A stretch of 64,000 nucleotides of DNA. Source: Podospora anserina. Its lineage: Eukaryota. Location of the stretch: the NCBI GenBank assembly GCA_017654855.1, contig CM030332.1, forward strand, positions 4,836,001 through 4,900,000. Reading direction: 5' to 3'. The notes under the pieces are model-generated. The model was not told the origin of the DNA, made no database searches, and saw only the letters and a list, made by a program, of their open reading frames with translations. The position numbers and the translations under genes were made by a program. Shown here piece by piece: positions 36,915 to 59,739 of the stretch (positions are counted from its first letter, which is position 1; each line of letters begins with the position of its first letter).

Positions 36915-37596
36915 TGCGGTGAGTTGTAAGGTGAGGTTGAAGCGTTCGCTAACAAAAGATTGAGGATGCTGGCTTCGGTTTATGGGTCCAGTTGTCTTTG
37001 AAGAAGAGTATATTAAACACCCATGGATTCAGCGTATTCTCGACAATTTCATGAATAACCTCGTATTGCTGTAGTCAGTAAGTGGTGTTGTTGTTTGTGA
37101 CAAGATACTGTCTTGAGCAGCTTGTAAACACACTGGCTGTTTGTTAGGGAAGTTGACTTGATATAAATGCAGGGGCCATCAGTGGTGTCCTCACTAAATA
37201 TGCCTCAGCTACGGTTTACTTTGACAGCAGGCGGCCAATCAGAGGACGTCGCGGAACTACCCAAAAAATTCCCACATAGAGGACGGCGCATGGCAGCTTC
37301 AACTCTCAGACGCGAGCAGCGCGACTGCTATTTTCCACCACATCCATCTCTCAACAACGTGTGACCTGCGTCGTCCACCCACCACGAATTCAGTCATTTG
37401 ATGCGGCACTCGAATGCATATTTCTTTCAGCTTCTTCAGACAAGCCTGAGTTCAGTTTTGGGGCGGGGCTGGGTTGGAATAGTTTCCGCCACAGACAGGT
37501 TTCGCTGCGGCGACTGCGAAATCCCATAATTTTGAGACGACCACCCTCACCTCGTCGATTTCTCCCCGTATCATCCATCTCCCACCATCCGCCAAC

Positions 37597-40500
37597 ATGT
37601 CCGACTATCAGCGCGATGTCTCGCAGTACAAGTACTCGGCCATGTCCAACCTGGTCCTCCAGGCGGACCGTCGGTTTGTCACAAGACGAACAGACGAGGC
37701 CACAGGCGACCCGGAATCTCTCGCCGGTCGTCTCTCCATCAAGGATATGGGCGCACGTGTCGGCCGCGATGCGGCCCCAAAGACGAAAAAGACCAGTGCC
37801 ATGCCCAACGTCGAGCGAGGAGATGTACAGGAAGGCGCTGACATTCTTCAACACTTGAAGGACAAGAAGAAGAAGGGCAAGACTGAGACCCGCGGCGGTG
37901 GTATTCTCGCGAGCACCGACATGATCGAGGGTATCATCTACCGACCACGAACACAGCCAACACGGGACGCATTCAACCTCATCCTGACGATTGTGGCCGA
38001 GCACTTGGGTGATCTACCCCACGACACAGTGCGCAGCGCGGCTGATGCCGTACTGGAGTTCCTCAAGGATGATGACCTCAAGGATTTTGACAAGAAGAAG
38101 GAAATTGATGGGATATTGGGCGAGTCTATGGATCCAAAGCAGTTCAATGAGCTGGTAAATCTTGGAAAGAAGATCACAGATTACGATGCGCAGGACGACG
38201 AGGATGAGGAAATGGGCGATGCCAGACCAGATGCCGATGATGAAATTGATGGCCGCCAAGGTGTTGCGGTCAACTTTGAAAACGACGAAGATGATGATGG
38301 CATGGTAGATGTAGTACGGGACGAGTCTTCTTCTGAGGACGAGGAAGAGGATATTGACGATGAGGATCGGCCAGAGCTTCAGGAGGTTGCCGATGGTGGG
38401 GAGGCTGGGATTGATCGGGATGAGGAGGAGGTAGGGTTGGTTGATGGCGAGACTATGGTTATCGATGCAGCGCCAAACGGGAAGGACAAGTCCGAGGAGA
38501 AGAACTCTGTGCCGGCCCGGGATATTGATGCATATTGGTTACAACGGCAAATTGGTCGCCTTTACCCAGATGCCCATGTTCAGCACGACAAGACCTCCCT
38601 TGCGCTCAAGATCCTTTCAGGAGAGCCGGATGAGCCAGGTGGAGAGGAGAAGCAACTTCGCGACATTGAAAATGACCTCATGGAGCTCTTTGACTACGAG
38701 CACCATGAGATTGTGCAAAAGCTGATCGAGAACCGGGAAAAGGTTGTGTGGCTTACACGGCTGGCCAGGGCAGAGGACCAGAAGGAACGAGACACAATCG
38801 AAAGAGAAATGGCTTCAGAAGGGCTGCGGTGGATTCTGGACGAACTTCATGGCAAGTCCAAGGATGACCAAAAGAAGCCAAAGATGGAAATCAAGATGGA
38901 CATCGACTCTGGTGCCTTTGCCGACGGGAAAGCCCCAAAGCAGGAAAAGCCTGATGGTCAGTTGGTCGGCGGTCTTCAACCCAAGAAACTGATCAACCTG
39001 GAAAATCTCGTGTTCGACCAAGGCAATCATCTCAACACCAATCCCAAGGTCAGGCTACCGGAAGGTACCACAAAAAGAACCTTCAAGGGCTACGAAGAAA
39101 TTCATGTGCCTCCACCCAAGAAGCGTAACGATCCTAGCGATGTGAACATCCCTATTTCGGAGATGCCAGAGTGGGCTCAACCTCCTTTCAGCACAACCAA
39201 GTCTCTCAACAAGATTCAGTCAAAGTGCTTCCCTACTGCGTTTCATGACGACGGCAACATGCTGGTCTGCGCCCCGACAGGTTCCGGCAAGACCAACGTG
39301 TCTATGCTCACCATTCTCAGAGAGATTGGCAAGAACAGGAACGAGAGGGGTGAGATTGACCTCGACGCCTTCAAGATTGTCTACATTGCCCCCCTGAAGG
39401 CTCTTGTACAGGAGCAGGTCGGCAATTTTGGCAAGCGTCTGGAGCCGTATGGTATCAAGGTCTCGGAATTGACTGGTGACCGGCAGCTCACCAAGCAGCA
39501 AATCTCTGAGACCCAGATCATTGTCACGACACCTGAGAAGTGGGATGTCATCACCAGAAAGGCCACTGATATCTCCTACACAAATCTGGTTCGGCTGATC
39601 ATTATCGACGAAATCCATCTTCTACATGATGATCGTGGCCCGGTTTTGGAGAGCATTGTGAGCAGGACGATTCGCAAGACCGAGCAAACCGGTGAACCAG
39701 TCCGTATTGTTGGTCTCTCTGCTACTTTGCCGAACTACAAAGATGTCGCAAGCTTCCTGCGTGTTGATATGGCCAAGGGCTTGTTCCATTTTGATGGTTC
39801 ATTCCGTCCCTGCCCGTTGCGCCAAGAATTCATTGGCATCACCGAGAGGAAAGCCATCAAGCAACTCAAGACCATGAACGATATTACCTACACCAAGGTG
39901 ATAGAGCATGTCGGCACTCACCGCAACCAAATGCTGATTTTCGTTCATTCGAGAAAAGAAACGGCAAAGACGGCCAAGTACATTCGCGACAAGGCTTTGG
40001 AGATGGATACCATCAACCAGATCCTCAAGCACGATGCTGGTACTCGTGAGGTGCTTAGTGAAGCAGCGAATGCAGTCAACAATACGGATCTCAAGGACAT
40101 CTTGCCCTACGGTTTTGGTATCCATCACGCTGGTATGAGCCGAGCTGATCGCACTGATGTTGAGGATCTTTTCTCTAGCGGCCATATTCAGGTGCTTGTC
40201 TGCACGGCCACCCTCGCTTGGGGTGTCAACTTGCCTGCTCACACAGTCATTATCAAGGGTACTCAAGTGTATTCTCCAGAAAAGGGTAGCTGGGTTGAAT
40301 TGAGCCCTCAGGATGTCCTGCAGATGCTTGGTCGTGCCGGTCGCCCACAGTTCGACACATACGGTGAAGGCATCATCATCACCACTCAGGGAGAAATGAC
40401 GTACTATCTTTCGCTTCTCAACCAGCAGCTGCCTATTGAAAGTCAGTTTGCAAGCAAGCTGGTGGACAATCTCAACGCTGAAATCGTCCTGGGCAATGTT

Positions 40501-43500
40501 CGCAGCCGCGATGAAGGTGTGGAGTGGCTCGGCTACACCTATCTCTTCGTTCGCATGCTCCGGTCGCCCGGTCTCTACAGCGTCGGCGCAGAGTACGAGG
40601 ATGATGAGGCATTGGAGCAGAAACGTGTCGATCTAATACACTCGGCCGCCACTGTGCTCAAGAAGTCGAACTTGATCAAATACGATGAAAAGACCGGCAA
40701 GCTCCAGTCTACCGAGCTTGGTCGTATCGCCTCTCATTACTACATCACAAACTCGTCCATGGACACCTACAACAAGCTGATCCAGCCGGCGATGAATGAT
40801 GTGGAGCTCTTCCGTGTCTTTGCACAGAGTGGCGAGTTCAAGTACATTCCGGTTCGTCAAGAAGAAAAGCTTGAACTGGCCAAGCTGCTTGCTCGTGTGC
40901 CCATTCCCGTCAAGGAGAGCATCGAGGAGCCAACTGCCAAGATCAATGTTCTGCTTCAGGCCTACATTTCTCGCCTGCGACTGGATGGCCTTGCCCTGAT
41001 GGCCGACATGGTCTATGTCACTCAGTCTGCTGGCCGCATCCTTCGTGCCATCTTCGAAATCACCCTCAAGAAGGGATGGGCTTCAGTTGCCAAGTTGGCT
41101 CTGAACCTGTGCAAGATGGCCGAGAAGAGAATGTGGCCGACTATGTCTCCTCTCAGACAGTTCCCCAGCTGCCCAGGCGAAATCGTCAGAAAGGCTGAGC
41201 GGATAGAGGTGCCTTTCAGCAGCTATCTGGACCTTGATCCCCCTCGCATGGGCGAGTTGCTCGGCATGCCCAAGGCTGGAAAGACTGTTTGCGCGCTTGT
41301 GGCCAAGTTTCCTCGCGTCGAAGTTCAGGCCAACGTCCAGCCCATGACTCGCTCCATGCTCCGGGTCGAGTTGACCATCACGCCCAACTTTGAGTGGGAT
41401 GTTGACGTTCATGGGTTGTCTGAAAGCTTCTGGATCATGGTAGAAGACTGCGATGGTGAAGACATTCTCTTCCATGACCAGTTCATCCTCCGCAAGGACT
41501 ATGCCGAGTCTGATGCGAATGAACACATTGTAGAGTTCACAGTGCCCATCACTGAGCCAATGCCGCCCAATTACTTCATCTCGGTGATTTCGGACCGCTG
41601 GATGCACTCCGAGACTCGACTGCCAGTATCATTCCAGCAGCTGATCCTGCCAGAGAGGTTCCCACCACACACTGAGCTTCTTGATTTGCAGCCTCTGCCG
41701 GTTACTGCCCTGAAGGCCAAGGACTATGCCGCTCTCTACCCTGACTTGACCCAGTTCAACAAGATCCAAACGCAAACATTCAACTCGCTCTACGGCACCG
41801 ACAACAATGTCCTTGTGGCCGCTCCCACGAGCAGCGGCAAGACCGTCTGTGCCGAGTTTGCCTTGCTTCGCCACTGGAACAAGCAGGAGTCTGGACGCGC
41901 AGTGTACATTGCCCCGTTCCAGGAGTTGGTGGACCTGCGCTATCAAGATTGGCAGAAGAAGTTTGCCAATCTCAGGGGGGGCAAGGATATTGTCAAGCTG
42001 ACTGGAGAGACTGCTGCTGATCTGAAGCTCCTCGAGCAAGGTGACTTGATTCTGGCGACGCCTCTTCAGTGGGATGTCTTGTCCAGACAATGGAAGCGCA
42101 GAAAGAACGTCCAGACTGTGGAGCTCTTCATTGCCGATGAGCTGCACATGCTTGGTGGGCAGATGGGATACATCTACGAGATTATCGTGTCCCGCATGCA
42201 CTACATCCGCACCCAGACTGAGCTCCCGGTCAGAATCGTTGGTCTCAGTGTTTCCCTTGCCAACGCTCGCGATGTGGGAGAGTGGATTGACGCCAAGAAG
42301 CATGATATCTACAACTTTAGCCCTCATGTCAGGCCCGTTCCTCTGGAGCTTCACATTCAGTCATACACCATTCCTCATTTCCCATCCCTGATGCTGGCGA
42401 TGGCTAAGCCAACATATCTGGCTGTGACTCAGATGTCGCCTGATCAGCCGGCTCTCATTTTTGTGCCCAGCCGCAAGCAAACTAGAGCCACAGCAAGGGA
42501 CATCCTCACTGCCGCATTGGCAGATGATGATGAGGACCGCTTCTTGAACGTTGAGGTGGAGCAGATACAGAAGCTTCTCGAGCGTGTCCAAGAGCCAGCT
42601 CTCGCGGAGGCTCTCTCCCACGGCGTTGGCTACTACCACGAAGCTCTTAGCCAGAGTGACAAGCGCATTGTCATGCATCTCTACAAGAATAATGCCATCC
42701 AGGTTCTCATCGCCTCTCGCGATGTCTGCTGGGAGCTGGATTGCACTGCCCACCTCGTTATTGTCATGGGCACGCAATACTTCGAGGGCAGAGAGCACCG
42801 CTATGTTGACTACCCGCTCAGCGAGGTTCTGCAAATGTTCGGCAAGGCTTCGCAGTCTTCGCGCGACGGCCGTGGTCGCGGTGTGCTGATGGTGCCGGCG
42901 GTGAAGAGAGAGTATTACAAAAAATTCCTCAACGAAGCTCTGCCCGTTGAGTCGCATCTTCACAACTTCCTCCAGGATGCGTTTGTGACCGAGATCAGCA
43001 CGAGGATGATCGAGTCTGGTGAGGATGCTATCAACTGGGCCACATTCACCTACTTTTATCGCCGACTGCTCGCCAACCCAAGCTACTACAGTCTTACGGA
43101 TCCTACTCACGAGGGCCTGAGCCAGTACCTCTCTGACATGGTTGAAGCCACCCTGAAGGAGCTCTCGGAGTCCAAGATTGTAGACTTTGACGAGGATGAG
43201 GGCACTGTCGCTCCTCAGAACGCTGCCATGATTGCTGCGTATTACAACATCTCGTACATCACCATGCAGACCTTCCTTCTCTCGCTCACGGCGAAGACGA
43301 AGCTCAAGGGCATTCTCGAAATCGTTACGTCTGCTACCGAGTTTGAATCGATTCAGATCCGGCGTCACGAGGAAGCCATCCTCAGACGCATCTATGACAG
43401 TGTTCCCGTCAAGATGGCTGAGCCAGCTTTCGATTCGCCTCATTTCAAGGCCTTTGTGTTGGTTCAGGCCCATTTCTCCCGGATGAACCTCCCGATTGAT

Positions 43501-44247
43501 TTGGCTAAGGACCAGGAAGTCATCTTGACCAAGATTGTCAGCCTGTTGAATGCCATCGTCGATATCTTGTCTTCTGATGGCCGTCTCAACGCCATGAACG
43601 CCATGGAAATGTCGCAGATGGTGGTGCAGGCCATGTGGGATCGCGACAGCCCCCTCAAGCAGATTCCCAACTTCACCACCGAAACTGTCAAGGTGGCCAA
43701 CAAGTACGACATTCAGGATATCTTTGACTTCATGAGCAAGATGGATCCTGACGAGAATCCTGACTACAATTCTCTCATCAAGGATCTCGGGTTCACCCAG
43801 GCACAGCTCGCGCAGGCGGCCAACTTTACCAACAGCAAGTATCCCGAAATCTCGCTGGAGGTTGAGGTGGAGGACAAGGATGAGATCCGGGCTGGCGAGC
43901 CGGCGTACCTCAAGATCGCGATCGAGCGGGAGATTGACGAGGACGAGGAGTACGACCCGACCGTGCACGCGCCGTTTTACCCCGGGAAGAAGACGGAGAG
44001 TTGGTGGTTGGTGGTTGGCGAGGAAAAGACAAAGGAGCTGCTGGCAATCAAGCGGATCACGGTAGGACGGAAACTCAACGTCAGACTGGAATTCACCGTG
44101 CCCACGGCGGGTCACCACGACTTGAAGCTCTTCTTCATGAGCGACAGCTACATGGGTGTGGATCAGGAGCCATCATTTTCGGTGGAGGTTGCGGAGGGGA
44201 TGGATGTTGATGAGGAGGAGGACGATGAGGAGGAGGATGATGAGTAG
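37597..44247 (+). CDS. BRR2: U5 snRNP helicase Brr2 (2216 aa, single exon)
   Basis: MSNLVLQADRRF N-terminus, two Ski2-like helicase cassettes (APTGSGKT/DEIH and APTSSGKT/DELH), Sec63 domains and C-terminal SDSYMGVDQE. Confidence 0.98.
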   Translation: MSDYQRDVSQYKYSAMSNLVLQADRRFVTRRTDEATGDPESLAGRLSIKDMGARVGRDAAPKTKKTSAMPNVERGDVQEGADILQHLKDKKKKGKTETRGGGILASTDMIEGIIYRPRTQPTRDAFNLILTIVAEHLGDLPHDTVRSAADAVLEFLKDDDLKDFDKKKEIDGILGESMDPKQFNELVNLGKKITDYDAQDDEDEEMGDARPDADDEIDGRQGVAVNFENDEDDDGMVDVVRDESSSEDEEEDIDDEDRPELQEVADGGEAGIDRDEEEVGLVDGETMVIDAAPNGKDKSEEKNSVPARDIDAYWLQRQIGRLYPDAHVQHDKTSLALKILSGEPDEPGGEEKQLRDIENDLMELFDYEHHEIVQKLIENREKVVWLTRLARAEDQKERDTIEREMASEGLRWILDELHGKSKDDQKKPKMEIKMDIDSGAFADGKAPKQEKPDGQLVGGLQPKKLINLENLVFDQGNHLNTNPKVRLPEGTTKRTFKGYEEIHVPPPKKRNDPSDVNIPISEMPEWAQPPFSTTKSLNKIQSKCFPTAFHDDGNMLVCAPTGSGKTNVSMLTILREIGKNRNERGEIDLDAFKIVYIAPLKALVQEQVGNFGKRLEPYGIKVSELTGDRQLTKQQISETQIIVTTPEKWDVITRKATDISYTNLVRLIIIDEIHLLHDDRGPVLESIVSRTIRKTEQTGEPVRIVGLSATLPNYKDVASFLRVDMAKGLFHFDGSFRPCPLRQEFIGITERKAIKQLKTMNDITYTKVIEHVGTHRNQMLIFVHSRKETAKTAKYIRDKALEMDTINQILKHDAGTREVLSEAANAVNNTDLKDILPYGFGIHHAGMSRADRTDVEDLFSSGHIQVLVCTATLAWGVNLPAHTVIIKGTQVYSPEKGSWVELSPQDVLQMLGRAGRPQFDTYGEGIIITTQGEMTYYLSLLNQQLPIESQFASKLVDNLNAEIVLGNVRSRDEGVEWLGYTYLFVRMLRSPGLYSVGAEYEDDEALEQKRVDLIHSAATVLKKSNLIKYDEKTGKLQSTELGRIASHYYITNSSMDTYNKLIQPAMNDVELFRVFAQSGEFKYIPVRQEEKLELAKLLARVPIPVKESIEEPTAKINVLLQAYISRLRLDGLALMADMVYVTQSAGRILRAIFEITLKKGWASVAKLALNLCKMAEKRMWPTMSPLRQFPSCPGEIVRKAERIEVPFSSYLDLDPPRMGELLGMPKAGKTVCALVAKFPRVEVQANVQPMTRSMLRVELTITPNFEWDVDVHGLSESFWIMVEDCDGEDILFHDQFILRKDYAESDANEHIVEFTVPITEPMPPNYFISVISDRWMHSETRLPVSFQQLILPERFPPHTELLDLQPLPVTALKAKDYAALYPDLTQFNKIQTQTFNSLYGTDNNVLVAAPTSSGKTVCAEFALLRHWNKQESGRAVYIAPFQELVDLRYQDWQKKFANLRGGKDIVKLTGETAADLKLLEQGDLILATPLQWDVLSRQWKRRKNVQTVELFIADELHMLGGQMGYIYEIIVSRMHYIRTQTELPVRIVGLSVSLANARDVGEWIDAKKHDIYNFSPHVRPVPLELHIQSYTIPHFPSLMLAMAKPTYLAVTQMSPDQPALIFVPSRKQTRATARDILTAALADDDEDRFLNVEVEQIQKLLERVQEPALAEALSHGVGYYHEALSQSDKRIVMHLYKNNAIQVLIASRDVCWELDCTAHLVIVMGTQYFEGREHRYVDYPLSEVLQMFGKASQSSRDGRGRGVLMVPAVKREYYKKFLNEALPVESHLHNFLQDAFVTEISTRMIESGEDAINWATFTYFYRRLLANPSYYSLTDPTHEGLSQYLSDMVEATLKELSESKIVDFDEDEGTVAPQNAAMIAAYYNISYITMQTFLLSLTAKTKLKGILEIVTSATEFESIQIRRHEEAILRRIYDSVPVKMAEPAFDSPHFKAFVLVQAHFSRMNLPIDLAKDQEVILTKIVSLLNAIVDILSSDGRLNAMNAMEMSQMVVQAMWDRDSPLKQIPNFTTETVKVANKYDIQDIFDFMSKMDPDENPDYNSLIKDLGFTQAQLAQAANFTNSKYPEISLEVEVEDKDEIRAGEPAYLKIAIEREIDEDEEYDPTVHAPFYPGKKTESWWLVVGEEKTKELLAIKRITVGRKLNVRLEFTVPTAGHHDLKLFFMSDSYMGVDQEPSFSVEVAEGMDVDEEEDDEEEDDE

Positions 44248-54248: not shown

Positions 54249-56308
54249 ATGCTTCTCCGGTTGCGAACGCCTGATGGCATGATCCGCCTGACGGTGGAAA
54301 AGAGCAACACCTTCAAACAGCTCGCTGAGCAGCTGTTACCTCAGCTCCCCTCGACAGTCGACCCTCAAACCATCCGGCTCTCCCCCCAGCCCAGCGGTGG
54401 CGAGTCGAAGCTCCTCTCTGAGATTGCAAAGTACAAGTTGGAACAGATAGGTTTAAAGTAAGGCAGCTTGGCGTATTCCGACTAGTAGGCTTACTGACAT
54501 CTCCGGAACAGCCATGGAGACCTTGTGTTTGTCAGTTACAAGCAACAGGATGCTGTTGCAGATGGCAACGCAAACGGCGATGCGTCCGCTCCAACCCTTC
54601 TCGCAAAGACAGCGCGTCTCAACGGAAAGCCGATTCTCCCTACAGAGGACCATCCCATCGACCCACCACCATCCATCGACACCGAGGTGAAACACATCAA
54701 GAACCCCTGGGAGGTTGTGAAGCAGTCCCCTCTTGACGATAGACTGGACAAGAAGGATGGCAAGATTCCACGAGGGAAGGATGCCAAAATGTGCCGTCAC
54801 GGACCCAAGGGGATGTGCGACTACTGCACACCGTTGGACCCCTTCAACCAAACATATCTCGACGAAAAGAAGATCAAGTACATGTCGGTACACGCTTACA
54901 TGCGCAAGACGAACTCGGCGACAAACAAGCCCGAGCTGGGGAGCTCGTTTATTCCTCCTCTTGTCGAGCCGTACTACAGAGTCAAGCGCGACTGCCCATC
55001 AGGACATCCACAGTGGCCGGAAGGCATCTGCACCAAATGCCAACCCAGTGCCATCATTCTTCAGCCTCAAACTTTCCGCATGGTGGATCACGTCGAGTTC
55101 GCTTCTCCGGGCATCATCGACAAGTTTCTTGACGCTTGGCGCCGGACAGGGGCACAACGGTTAGGCATCCTCTATGGTCGGTATATGGAGTATGAGGTTG
55201 TGCCATTGGGAATCAAAGCGGTAGTTGAGGCCATCTATGAGCCTCCACAGATCGATGAAGTTGATGGTGTCTCGCTCAATGCTTGGGAAAATGAGCAAGA
55301 GATCAACCAGATCGCCAAGTTCTGCGGTCTTGAGCAGGTTGGTGTAATATGGACTGATCTTTTGGACGCCGGCAAGGGCGATGGCAGTGCCGTATGCAAA
55401 CGACACGCAGACTCATACTTCCTCGCCTCTCAGGAGGTTTGCTTTGCTGCTCGGATGCAGGCTCAGCACCCCAAGCCATCCAAGTGGAGTGATGCAGGAC
55501 GCTTTGGCTCCAACTTTGTCACTTGTGTCGTCTCTGGTAACGAGCAGGGTGAGATTTCCATTTCAGCTTACCAGATGTCAAACGATGCGGTAGAAATGGT
55601 GAGGGCAGATATCATTGAGCCTTCAGCCGACCCAACACAAATGCTGGTGCGGGAGGAAGAGGAAGACGATGGGTCTGTTAGCAGGACACGCTACATCCCC
55701 GAGGTGTTTTACCGCAGGATCAACGAATACGGCGTCAACGTTCAAGAGAACGCAAAGCCAGCATTCCCGGTCGAATATCTTTTCGTCACGCTTACCCACG
55801 GTTTCCCCGAGTCACCCAAGCCACTGTTTACCGACGAGGGCTTCCCGATCGAGAACAGAGAATATGTTGGCGAGGCGCAACAACCTTCTGCTGTCGCCAA
55901 GGCTCTCAGGGTGAACCAAAAAGGCGACAACAGGCTGCCTGTCTCGGACTTCCACCTTCTCTGCTACATTCACCAAATGAGCGTCCTATCCAAGGTAACA
56001 TTTGCCCGGCAAAGAGGTAGGATCAGTGGCTAACAACGTAGCAGGACGAGGAGGCTTTACTCTGCAAAGTTGCTACCCATCAGGACTTGGCCGAAGCGTT
56101 CCAGTTGCGGGAGACGCCAGGGTTCCAAACCCTTAAGATGATCCTTGAATCCACTGGTGAGAGACTCCCCAAACGCTCCCGATACTCTGACGACATTGCC
56201 AGTTCTCCCGCTGCATCTGCGTCTGGTCGCAAGTCTAAGAGGGACGACACCGGAGAACCACTTGCTAAGCGTTTTGCTGCTGTCAGGCTGAACGATACCC
56301 AACAATGA
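54249..56308 (+). CDS. NPL4: Cdc48 cofactor Npl4; exons 54249-54457, 54512-55994, 56045 (or 56042)-56308
   Basis: N-terminal UBL ([10 protein letters not shown]), zinc fingers [12 protein letters not shown] and [32 protein letters not shown] and FPIENR. Confidence 0.96.
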
Positions 56309-56721: not shown

Positions 56722-57790
56722 TCAAGAATCATACTCGGACCCTGTCACCACCTCGGCTTCTTTCCCACTTTTCTCCTCTTCGGGGGTTGCTGTTGGTTCA
56801 GAAGCCACCGACGAGGATGGCTTCTTCTGACCAAAATGATGAGAAGCAGGGTGAACCATCTCCCGGAACCCGACGCCCCGGCCCTTCATCCACCTGTGCA
56901 GCGGCTTCCAGTCGACGCAGACGTTGGGCTGGGGGACCTTGACGCTGGGCTTGAGGGTGGAGTGATCGGTCCAGTGGAGGGTGTAGACGTTTGTGTCGGC
57001 GGTGCAGAGGACGAGCTGGCGGAGGGACTCGAGGCAGTGGTCGACGTGGGAGGTGAGGTCGGACCAGGTTTCGTTTCCGGGGGTCGTGGAGATGTCTGGG
57101 TAGTAGTAGGTTGGGTGGAGGTATTGTTTTATTCTTTTCTGGAAGAAGGGTCAGTTTGGCGCGGGAATAGGTGTGGGAGGGGGGAGGGGGTGGTGGTAAG
57201 GGGTGACATACCAGGCAGTGTAGCGAGTGGCTCACTCCCAGACCGCCTACGTACCCGCCTCCCTCTCGACTGATGGAGACTGCGTTGCCGGCCTTTTTGA
57301 GCTCGTCCTCGCTGAAGTAGATGAGGGTTCCGTCTAGGAGGTCGTGCCAGGCTTTGTCGAGTTCGGGGCGGGGTTCGCCGAGGAATTTGGAGGTGTCGGG
57401 GTCGGTGTTCATGAATTTGTTTGTGTAGGTTACTGGGGCGGGTGCTATTTTCACTATTAATTATCATGATTGAGGGGGTATGAGGGAGTACATACAAAAG
57501 GGGATTTTGACCTCGGGGTTGTCGCCTGTGGTTGGTAGTATTGGACATGTTGATGAGTAGCTCTTTGGATAGGAGGTGTAATGGTATGTGAAGGCGGCGG
57601 TTAAGGAGAGAATTACGGTCACGCTTGAGACAAGGAGAGTGTAGAAGCGTCTTTTCCAGATGAGAGACTCATCGACGTATGGAGGCGGTGGCGGGGTGAG
57701 AGACTCTCCATCGTGATCTCTTTGGTGGTTGGATGGTAGTTGTGAGAGCAGAGGTGTGTAGTGAGGCTTTTCGTCCAGACTGGACATCAT
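56722..57790 (-). CDS. UstYa-family (DUF3328) oxidase, ~314 aa; exons 57790-57496, 57444-57212, 57138-56722
   Basis: N-terminal TM helix, GEPRPELDKAWHDLL, first HxxHC (HSLHC), second HxxHC (HVDHC) then LESLRQLVLCTADT, and CVDWKPLHRW. Two canonical introns. Confidence 0.93.
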
Positions 57791-59433
57791 CTTAAAGAGA
57801 CTCGATATGTTTCTATGTGGGCTTTAGAAGATAACAGAGAACCACTCAAGGACAGCATTCGTGTTGGCATTCTGCGGACTTGCGTTGGTTTTGGAAAGAT
57901 CGAGATCACGCCGATCATCTTTTCCCCTCTCCCCATCCCCTCACAACATACATCATCCCGCAGAGGTCAGGAATATGGAGACGGAAGGCTAAACACACCC
58001 CGCTCTCCAAGCCAGCCGGACCTTTTGACGTTGGACGCGCTATCCCGTACGATGCGGGCTAGAAGTGCCGGGTGGTACGTTTATTTACTTCGGCATGTAG
58101 GGCTTACTCTTGGACTTCTAGACTTTTGACCCTTTGGAATGACAGGGGAGAGGTTCGGCCTGGCATGGGATATGAGGATGATGAGATGGAAGGAAGTTTG
58201 TGTTCCCATGAACAATTTAAGTTGATATTTTCATTATGAGGAGAACCCCTTCCCTATAGTACCGCGTTCCTGGGCTTGGAGTTATTTTTGGTTCATGTTG
58301 TTCATCATGAACTTCCCAACCTCGAGAGTTGATGGAAAGATGCTTCCAAAAACACTCCGATTTATGAGGTCCAGCCTTCATGTAAAGAAACGTCGCATTT
58401 ACAACCTAACTTACCTTTCCGAGCCGCAAGCAACTGTTCAGCAGAACAGGGTAGCTATGTGGCTGACTCCTGTGCCGACGGTTCGCATTGTTTGGCTATG
58501 GGGTTGAGAAGTCCTACACTAGGTCTGATCGAATACGGGGTCATGGTCCGTGATTCCACGTTGCCATGTCCCATCGTGTCGACCGTTTCATTGACCCAGG
58601 CTCAGAGGGCTGGGAAAAGCGGTTCTTTGACGCAAGAGGAGATAGATTAACGGAGTATGGAAGCCCGGGTCGGTTTCTTTTCTCGAATCGGTATGCTTTG
58701 CAGTTCAATTACGTTTCCCTCTTTCTTGGGATTCTGGACTCTTTTCTTGGGTCAATAATCTTCATCGGATTTTTGCTTGTGTAAGTGGTGTGTACAAGCT
58801 TGGCTTTCCCCAGAGAAAGCCTACCAAAAGCATGGTGTAACAGGTCCCAAGAGTAAGCACTCTAAAAACACCACACCCTGAATACCGATCCAAGACCGCT
58901 GGTCCGGTGCGGATACAAGGACTGCCGCTCTTGGGTAGTTTTCGTGGCTGGCTCCTACAGAAAGCACGGTTCGGCGAGCGCTCCTTGATGCCTATTTCAC
59001 TCTACCTGCGGTCTTGTTGGCAGCCCACCTACCGAACCGAACCTCCGGCTTGCCGTGAGCCATTGGAACGCTTCCAGTGCAGAATCAGAAAGTGAGCGAT
59101 ATCCGACTGCTACACTGGTGAAAGCGTGCTAGCCTCGGCAGTTTCGACTCCCTCAGAAGAAACCGTTGGATACTACCAGCCACATCCGTAAAGTCTAGGC
59201 ACCTTAAGTCCTAGAGTGATTGTCTCGATCGAAGCCGAGATGTCTACTCTTGGTACGCTTTCGAGCTGATCAGTCGTCATGGATCCCAGAAAGGAGGACT
59301 TGAGGGGGTCTCAATCAATCTTGTGTATTGTGGGCATAATAAGTAGAAGTCGAGTCCAGTTTTCGAATCTGGAATTGCCTTCTTACTCCGGTCCCTCAAT
59401 CAACCATCGCAGAGTCACGCCCAGTCCCACAAA

Positions 59434-59739
59434 ATGAAGTTCACTGTTCTCCTCTTTGCTCTTTCAGCAATGATCGTGTCGTCTTTGGCGGCCCCAGTTC
59501 CCCAAGGGAAAATTTCTTACATTGGCCTTGATGTGCCAGATGATGCGGTTGAGCAATGTACGTTTTCTTGGCCCCCTTGTCTACTGCTCAAGATTCTGCC
59601 ACCAGACCTAACAAGAGGAATCATAGGCAAGATACCCAATGGGCCAGGGGGCCCTGAGTCACGTCACAAGAGAGATGGCACAATGGAATTCGACGTTGAC
59701 CTCTGCATACTCAAAAAGAGGGCAGCTCGAGAGAGCTAA
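59434..59739 (+). CDS. Small secreted peptide (78 aa spliced), candidate RiPP precursor; exons 59434-59557, 59627-59739
   Basis: Signal peptide MKFTVLLFALSAMIVSSLA/AP and an AAAATG start context. A 69-nt intron has GTACGT..CCTAAC..TAG signals. Product: APVPQGKISYIGLDVPDDAVEQCKIPNGPGGPESRH-KR-DGTMEFDVDLCIL-KKR-AARES. Confidence 0.75.
   Translation: MKFTVLLFALSAMIVSSLAAPVPQGKISYIGLDVPDDAVEQCTFSWPPCLLLKILPPDLTRGIIGKIPNGPGGPESRHKRDGTMEFDVDLCILKKRAARES

Follow-up and report, generated by a model that had tools for sequence, protein, structure and literature searches.

A UstYa/DUF3328 oxidase gene of Podospora anserina lies head-to-head with a predicted single-unit Kex2 precursor related to tandem-repeat precursors

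In this work we analyzed a stretch of 64,000 nucleotides of Podospora anserina DNA (assembly GCA_017654855.1, contig CM030332.1, positions 4,836,001 to 4,900,000; the whole stretch is called the window, and all coordinates are counted from its first letter), and in particular two divergent genes located between positions 56722 and 59739. On the minus strand lies a gene for an oxidase of the UstYa/DUF3328 family, and on the plus strand a small gene for a 78-residue candidate secreted precursor. The pair had been picked out from the letters alone, in what we call here the original prediction, as a complete three-exon UstYa/DUF3328 gene with both HxxHC motifs, placed head-to-head about 1.64 kb from a spliced 78-residue peptide with a Kex2-type secreted layout, and the locus was proposed as a candidate of the dikaritin type with a Tyr-containing motif of the peptide as the core. 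The gene models, the distance and the layout were all borne out by the analysis described here; the core was not. The oxidase gene has the following features.

56722-57790, minus strand: UstYa/DUF3328 gene of three exons encoding 314 amino acids (PF11807 on the exon open reading frames, together with a splice model).
57496-57790, 57212-57444 and 56722-57138, minus strand: exons 1, 2 and 3 of the oxidase gene (splice search).
57445-57495 and 57139-57211, minus strand: two introns, 51 and 73 nt long (GTATGT donors, AG acceptors).
57590-57646, minus strand: single transmembrane or signal-anchor segment, residues 49-67 (hydropathy maximum 1.88; AlphaFold helix 41-73).
57215-57229, minus strand: first HxxHC motif, HSLHC, residues 171-175 (invariant in 17 of 17 aligned homologues).
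57034-57048, minus strand: second HxxHC motif, HVDHC, residues 207-211 (likewise invariant in all 17).

The open reading frames (ORFs) of exons 2 and 3 match the PF11807 profile with 44.2 bits (E 2.6e-11) and 72.3 bits (E 7e-20), respectively, the cut-off being 25 bits. The spliced product is identical at 311 of 314 positions to P0005 from Podospora pseudocomata (P numbers are those used in this analysis), a protein that itself scores 141.8 bits on PF11807 and covers positions 7-220 of the 220 of the profile. By these sequence matches the encoded oxidase is a genuine UstYa-family protein. In the AlphaFold model, which has a mean predicted local distance difference test score (pLDDT) of 56 and a predicted template modelling score of 0.33, only helix 41-73 reaches a pLDDT of 88-95; from it and the hydropathy profile we infer a single N-terminal membrane anchor and a catalytic part that would be lumenal. 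The identity of the oxidase clade to homologues of Daldinia, Apiospora and Periconia is 45-57%, and its conservation is, judged from the alignments, unusual.

The N-terminus of the oxidase (residues 1-47; 57650-57790, minus strand), cytosolic in this topology, is rich in proline and includes the PPxY-type motif PPPPPY, which is kept in the orthologues of Podospora, Cercophora, Triangularia and Apiosordaria and missing from more distant ones; it may be a sorting signal or a docking signal for a ubiquitin ligase. The orthologues of Neurospora tetraspora, Sordaria macrospora and Copromyces (P0016, P0021 and P0022) are modelled at 541-549 amino acids and end in a long C-terminal extension rich in His, Gln, Gly and Asn that could be a genuine fusion or a merged gene model. 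A sequence search of the PDB returned no relative of the oxidase or of the 78-residue peptide, and no literature was found under the Podospora locus tags or under the tag of the Sordaria orthologue. The DUF3328 cluster of Sordaria described in PMC3472292 (SMAC_09002-09009) is a different locus.

The small gene and the region that separates it from the oxidase gene have the following features.

59434-59739, plus strand: small precursor gene encoding 78 amino acids, with the ATG at 59434, exon 1 at 59434-59557 and exon 2 at 59627-59739 including the stop codon.
59558-59626, plus strand: intron of the precursor gene, 69 nt, in frame (GTACGT...CTAAC...TAG).
59434-59490, plus strand: predicted signal peptide, residues 1-19, with cleavage between SLA and AP (hydropathy; invariant in three orthologues).
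59512-59544, plus strand: Tyr motif with acidic stretch, ISYIGLDVPDD, residues 27-37, including Tyr29 (read as pro-region).
59668-59673, plus strand: first dibasic (Kex2-type) site, KR 56-57 (invariant in the orthologues; such a site precedes the unit across the family).
59674-59712, plus strand: unit of the family, predicted to be the mature 13-mer DGTMEFDVDLCIL, residues 58-70, with Cys68 at unit position 11.
59713-59721, plus strand: second basic site, KKR 71-73, with a tail of five residues between it and the stop codon.
57791-59433, no strand: divergent intergenic region, 1,643 bp between the two ATGs, presumed to be a shared promoter region.

The spliced precursor is identical at 77 of 78 positions to P0002 (QC761_113195), which is annotated in P. 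bellae-mahoneyi, and a word search recovered three annotated orthologues (P. bellae-mahoneyi, Cercophora samala and Apiosordaria backusii) together with one unspliced ORF; the identity to the orthologues of C. samala and A. backusii is 54-76%. Sequence comparison thus confirms the small gene as real and not a product of chance, with this conservation and the unit matches described below behind it. Its intron has no stop codon, and its retention would lengthen the protein to 101 amino acids by inserting 23 residues between Cys42 and Lys43; P0001 (98 amino acids) is a read-through ORF of this precursor type in which the intron is unspliced.

The N-terminus of the precursor is hydrophobic, the Kyte-Doolittle profile peaking at 2.89 over residues 5-15. 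The signal peptide was called from hydropathy, the -3/-1 rule applied by eye and the context of the family, and its cleavage site is a predicted one. When residues 1-39 (59434-59550) were compared with PF05436 (MF_alpha_N), for which the cut-off is 22 bits, the scores fell below threshold both for P0002 (16.8 bits, E 0.0064) and for P0004 (18.6 bits, E 0.0018); this stretch, the Tyr motif included, looks like a leader or pro-region. The whole precursor has one Tyr (29) and two Cys (42 and 68). The 13-mer between the basic sites carries four acidic and no basic residues, lacks Tyr and has a monoisotopic mass of 1469.64 Da. Only one unit is present and no tandem repeat was found in the precursor, so that repeat-based mining would miss the gene, as the original prediction had anticipated. 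The best match to the peptide in a protein atlas search scored 0.84, which is a lead only.

The relatives of the small gene were sought with a profile built from the three orthologues and run on 1.84 billion representative proteins. At E<=0.001 it returned 13 proteins: one orthologue, two unrelated proteins (P0028 and P0030), one artefact (P0037) and nine proteins that match positions 54-73. These nine matches cover KR-DGTMEFDVDLCIL-KKR, which in three cases is part of a more extended match; two to four copies are present in each of six of these proteins. The E values were 2.1e-12 for P0029, 1.7e-9 for P0031 and 2.1e-7 for P0032; these three, P0033 and others repeat profile positions 54-73. 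A second, alignment-based search scored 8,000 candidates, of which at least 56 matched at E<=0.01. The family members among the matches listed belong to the Sordariales, the Xylariales (many of them), the Diaporthales, the Eurotiales (Aspergillus ellipticus, Paecilomyces), the Dothideomycetes (Pseudocercospora, Septoria) and one lichen fungus, and all of these proteins are annotated as hypothetical.

Unit statistics were obtained from 58 proteins with 123 units, and the family has at least that many members. The consensus unit, D-G-S/T-T-E-F-D-x-D-F/L-x-hydrophobic, is 12-13 residues long and strongly conserved (D1 in 123 units, G2 in 122, E5 in 122, F6 in 116, D7 in 120 and D9 in 123). KR or RR precedes the units; 39 of the 58 proteins hold two to four of them, and in 17 of these 39 the C-terminus coincides exactly, as determined by eye, with the final residue of a unit. 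Together, the basic boundary and the coincidence of protein end and unit end mark the 12-13-mer as the putative released product.

From these comparisons, the small gene is a one-unit member of a widespread repeat precursor family with predicted Kex2 processing, and the locus is not an orphan design, since by homology it derives, as a one-unit form, from classical repeat precursors. Given that the stretch between its dibasic sites is the repeat unit of its relatives, the likely product is the Tyr-free 13-mer and not the Tyr motif that had been taken as the core: the relatives share and repeat the former, and the latter lies in the leader-like residues 1-39. In addition, with Tyr in only 15 of the 123 units (unit position 10 or 12), a Tyr-ether macrocycle is improbable as the chemistry of this unit family.

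A second member of the family exists in Podospora: P0033 / P0040 (QC761_404500 of P. bellae-mahoneyi) has four units, DGTTEFDPDLAF x4, and is encoded on another chromosome. Three of the profile matches were discarded as family members. P0028 and P0030 are unrelated repeat proteins, namely a tandemly duplicated model and an ankyrin protein. P0037 (59 amino acids) agrees at 58 of 59 positions with the translation of the window (59560-59739) when every C is read as T, and seems to have been assembled from C-to-T-converted (bisulfite-type) reads of a Podospora relative rather than to be a natural homologue. The motif strings of the unit had no match in the literature and none in the supplements of two surveys of Kex2-repeat proteins, one of which lists no sequences; the family may be counted, unnamed, in the Umemura survey, given that its supplement provides accessions without sequences.

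The occurrence of Cys in the unit follows the number of units. Cys is present at unit position 11 in 16 proteins, each of which has only one unit and, outside it, one or more further Cys, and none of the 39 multi-unit proteins has a Cys in a unit. The 16 fall to 14 without P0001, which is the small gene's ORF in unspliced form, and the artefact P0037, neither of which is independent. In three of these, of the Podospora type, the partner Cys is upstream, at Cys42; in the other 11 (among those named, Xylaria, Biscogniauxia and Hypoxylon) the partner is found three residues from the C-terminus, within the fragment that follows the KKR site. A disulfide across the Kex2 site is suggested by this covariation, and since such a bond would span the point of cleavage, the product could possibly consist of two chains.

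The association of the two genes is not limited to P. anserina. In other Podospora annotations the pair bears the locus tags QC761_113195 and QC762_113200, and the peptide and DUF3328 matches are found on contigs of identical size in C. samala (427,775) and in A. backusii (2,966,929). A further case is P0039, a protein of 204 amino acids whose N-terminus is an antisense reading of DUF3328 exon 3: it shows 45% identity over 110 amino acids (E 3e-16) to the antisense ORF of the window, and once decoded 52 of 124 positions are compatible with residues 178-301 of P0005, against a maximum of 39 in shuffled sequences. The decoded sequence includes H.DHCLESLR, with the second HxxHC motif, and VCVDW. 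The C-terminus of P0039 carries three DGSTEFDADLTVH-type units, the first one shortened at its N-terminus. Judging from this composition, P0039 is evidently a gene-finder splice across a head-to-head DUF3328/precursor pair, and thus the head-to-head layout also exists where the precursor still has repeats. In the window, the ORFs of the intergenic region 57791-59433 have no Pfam match, no UstYa or unit match was found in it, and its repeats are only short and at chance level.

Among the matches listed, the oxidase clade and the peptide family are both represented in the Sordariales, Xylariales, Diaporthales and Dothideomycetes. In the available part of a survey of Kex2-repeat genes it was reported that DUF3328 genes peak directly beside them, and that 31.8% of 9,399 lie within 15 genes (PMC7329392). 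An involvement of the oxidase with the peptide is plausible, at roughly even odds.

In our opinion the best explanation for the locus, with a probability of about 0.5, is that the small gene encodes a single-unit Kex2 precursor whose unit is modified by the adjoining UstYa oxidase. The following route is proposed by analogy with characterized systems as regards secretion, Kex2 and Kex1 cleavage, the disulfide and, above all, modification of the peptide by the oxidase. Signal peptidase would cut after SLA as the pre-pro-peptide enters the endoplasmic reticulum, and Cys42 of the pro-region would pair with Cys68 of the unit. The oxidase, a predicted type-II membrane protein transcribed divergently from the shared 1.6-kb region, would oxidize the Tyr-free unit in the secretory pathway; the classical Tyr-O ether is impossible on this unit given that it has no Tyr. 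Cleavage by Kex2 after KR57 and after KKR73 would be followed by trimming of the basic residues by a Kex1-type carboxypeptidase. A Ste13-type removal of AP-VP may expose Gln24; a Gln follows X-Pro/X-Ala pairs in all three orthologues. The available text of PMC9769878 reports Kex2 peptides with pyro-Gln and describes Kex2/Kex1/Ste13 processing of such precursors. The acidic 13-mer would be released free or tethered by the disulfide to the N-terminal fragment.

The same precursor could be processed alike and yield an unmodified linear peptide, secreted or signalling, similar to alpha-factor, with the DUF3328 gene as an unrelated neighbour kept by synteny. We consider this a substantial possibility, short of an even chance, and several observations that weigh against a role for the oxidase speak in its favor. 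The unit is near-invariant across fungal classes, a pattern more typical of a signalling peptide read by a receptor than of a fast-evolving core in a peptide made on ribosomes and modified after translation (RiPP), and the leader shows the sub-threshold likeness to MF_alpha_N. In T. verruculosa the peptide is on a contig of 274,356 bp and the DUF3328 gene of this clade on one of 280,807 bp, and in Cladorrhinum PSN332 the respective contigs are of 882,970 and 526,688, these two peptides being members of the other unit subtype; the Podospora paralogue QC761_404500 is on a different chromosome from this DUF3328 clade, and Neurospora and Sordaria have the clade with no peptide homologue there among the matches listed. 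Adjacency within the Sordariales may be plain inherited synteny. The surroundings in the window are of the housekeeping kind and not a secondary-metabolite setting, and no other tailoring, transporter or regulator gene was found by Pfam in its 64 kb. It is reported that 78% of the Kex2-repeat genes have no DUF3328 gene nearby and those of the pheromone type almost never have one as neighbour (PMC7329392), and linear, minimally modified peptides derived by Kex2 cleavage are documented (PMC9769878). Against a mere neighbour it speaks that the genes directly adjoin in divergent orientation and that the layout recurs in a genome with a three-unit peptide; that DUF3328 is strongly enriched exactly beside Kex2-repeat genes, as stated in the available part of PMC7329392; and that unusual conservation is shared by the DUF3328 clade and the family of peptides, both of which occur in the same orders or classes among the matches listed.

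Modification of the C-terminal unit by the oxidase has also to be compared with the idea that ISYIGLDVPDD is the core and is closed by the oxidase into a Tyr-ether macrocycle, as in ustiloxin and phomopsin. In favor of this idea, Y29, G31 and D33-A38 are invariant in the three orthologues, and the known dikaritins are cyclized through Tyr (the available part of PMC7329392). Nevertheless, the motif is read as pro-region because it has no dibasic site on either side, is restricted to the group of Podospora, Cercophora and Apiosordaria, the wider relatives sharing and repeating the C-terminal unit, and lies inside a stretch that weakly resembles the leader of pheromone precursors; a Tyr core is thus very unlikely. 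The least probable of the readings is an unprocessed small secreted protein, effector-like or structural, that escapes cleavage at its basic pairs. The signal-like N-terminus and the conservation of two Cys would suit such a protein, but not its homology to multi-unit proteins in which KR or RR bounds the units and the chain ends, in 17 of 39, with a unit.

The pair is flanked by the genes of NPL4 and of a carboxylesterase. The NPL4 gene (54498-56308, plus strand) and the oxidase gene lie tail to tail, with about 410 bp between their 3' ends. The carboxylesterase gene (PF00135; 60893-62923, minus strand) is divided into two ORFs by an in-frame stop; it looks intact, since the stop falls inside a short intron (GTGTGT, CTAAC, AG). 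The rest of the window carries housekeeping genes, i.e. Sec66, ORC3, BRR2 (37483-44247), an RFC subunit, a DEAD-box helicase, a RhoGAP-LIM protein and a peptidase M49. A scan of the whole window gave no second UstYa gene and no second unit.

Several known systems resemble the locus in part. As in the dikaritin loci of ustiloxin, phomopsin and asperipin-2a, a UstYa membrane protein gene with two HxxHC motifs adjoins the gene of a precursor with a signal peptide, the unit is bounded by dibasic sites, and the relatives of the Podospora precursor are true tandem-repeat proteins. In contrast to those loci, the Podospora gene has one unit, devoid of Tyr, in which F6 is the conserved aromatic residue and a Cys has a second Cys as putative partner; the pair is not accompanied by methyltransferase, tyrosinase, transporter or regulator genes; and the unit is conserved across classes instead of variable. 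The dikaritin classification was therefore not retained: the layout fits, but tandem repeats and a core Tyr are both absent.

With the Kex2-processed repeat proteins that give linear peptides, and with alpha-factor precursors, the Podospora precursor shares the pre-pro layout, the KR/KKR boundaries, a weak MF_alpha_N-like leader and, behind the signal peptide, possible X-Pro dipeptides (APVP). It differs from them in that it falls below the Pfam threshold, has no pheromone-type core, contains a single unit and has a DUF3328 neighbour, which is almost never found at pheromone genes in the available part of PMC7329392. The dikaritin-like clusters of lichens, as presented in the accessible text of PMC12048977, also have UstYa signature genes without a recognisable repeated precursor; its authors raise the possibility of single-core precursors and leave it open. 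No precursor was identified there, in that text, whereas the single-unit precursor of Podospora is tied by homology to relatives with repeats. The locus is a variant of the loci formed by a DUF3328 gene and a Kex2 precursor.

The mining of fungal genomes for RiPPs relies on tandem repeats next to DUF3328 genes. A single-unit precursor that is recognisable through the repeats of its relatives provides a homology-based route to such precursors, and a broadly conserved peptide family is brought to light. A further, tentative idea, which we regard as doubtful, is that enzyme and substrate are an ancient pair: a conserved UstYa clade would be dedicated to acidic Kex2 peptides of the type DG[ST]TEFDxD..., with a chemistry other than that of Tyr, e.g. 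at Phe6 or at an aliphatic C-H, and the precursors of Podospora and of its relatives in the Xylariales, having collapsed to one unit, would yield a two-chain disulfide peptide on Kex2 cleavage. If this were true, the small gene would encode the first concrete precursor of the single-core kind to be assigned to a DUF3328 enzyme, and the fungus is genetically tractable; should the oxidase play no part, the family would still be a candidate for a conserved fungal signalling peptide.

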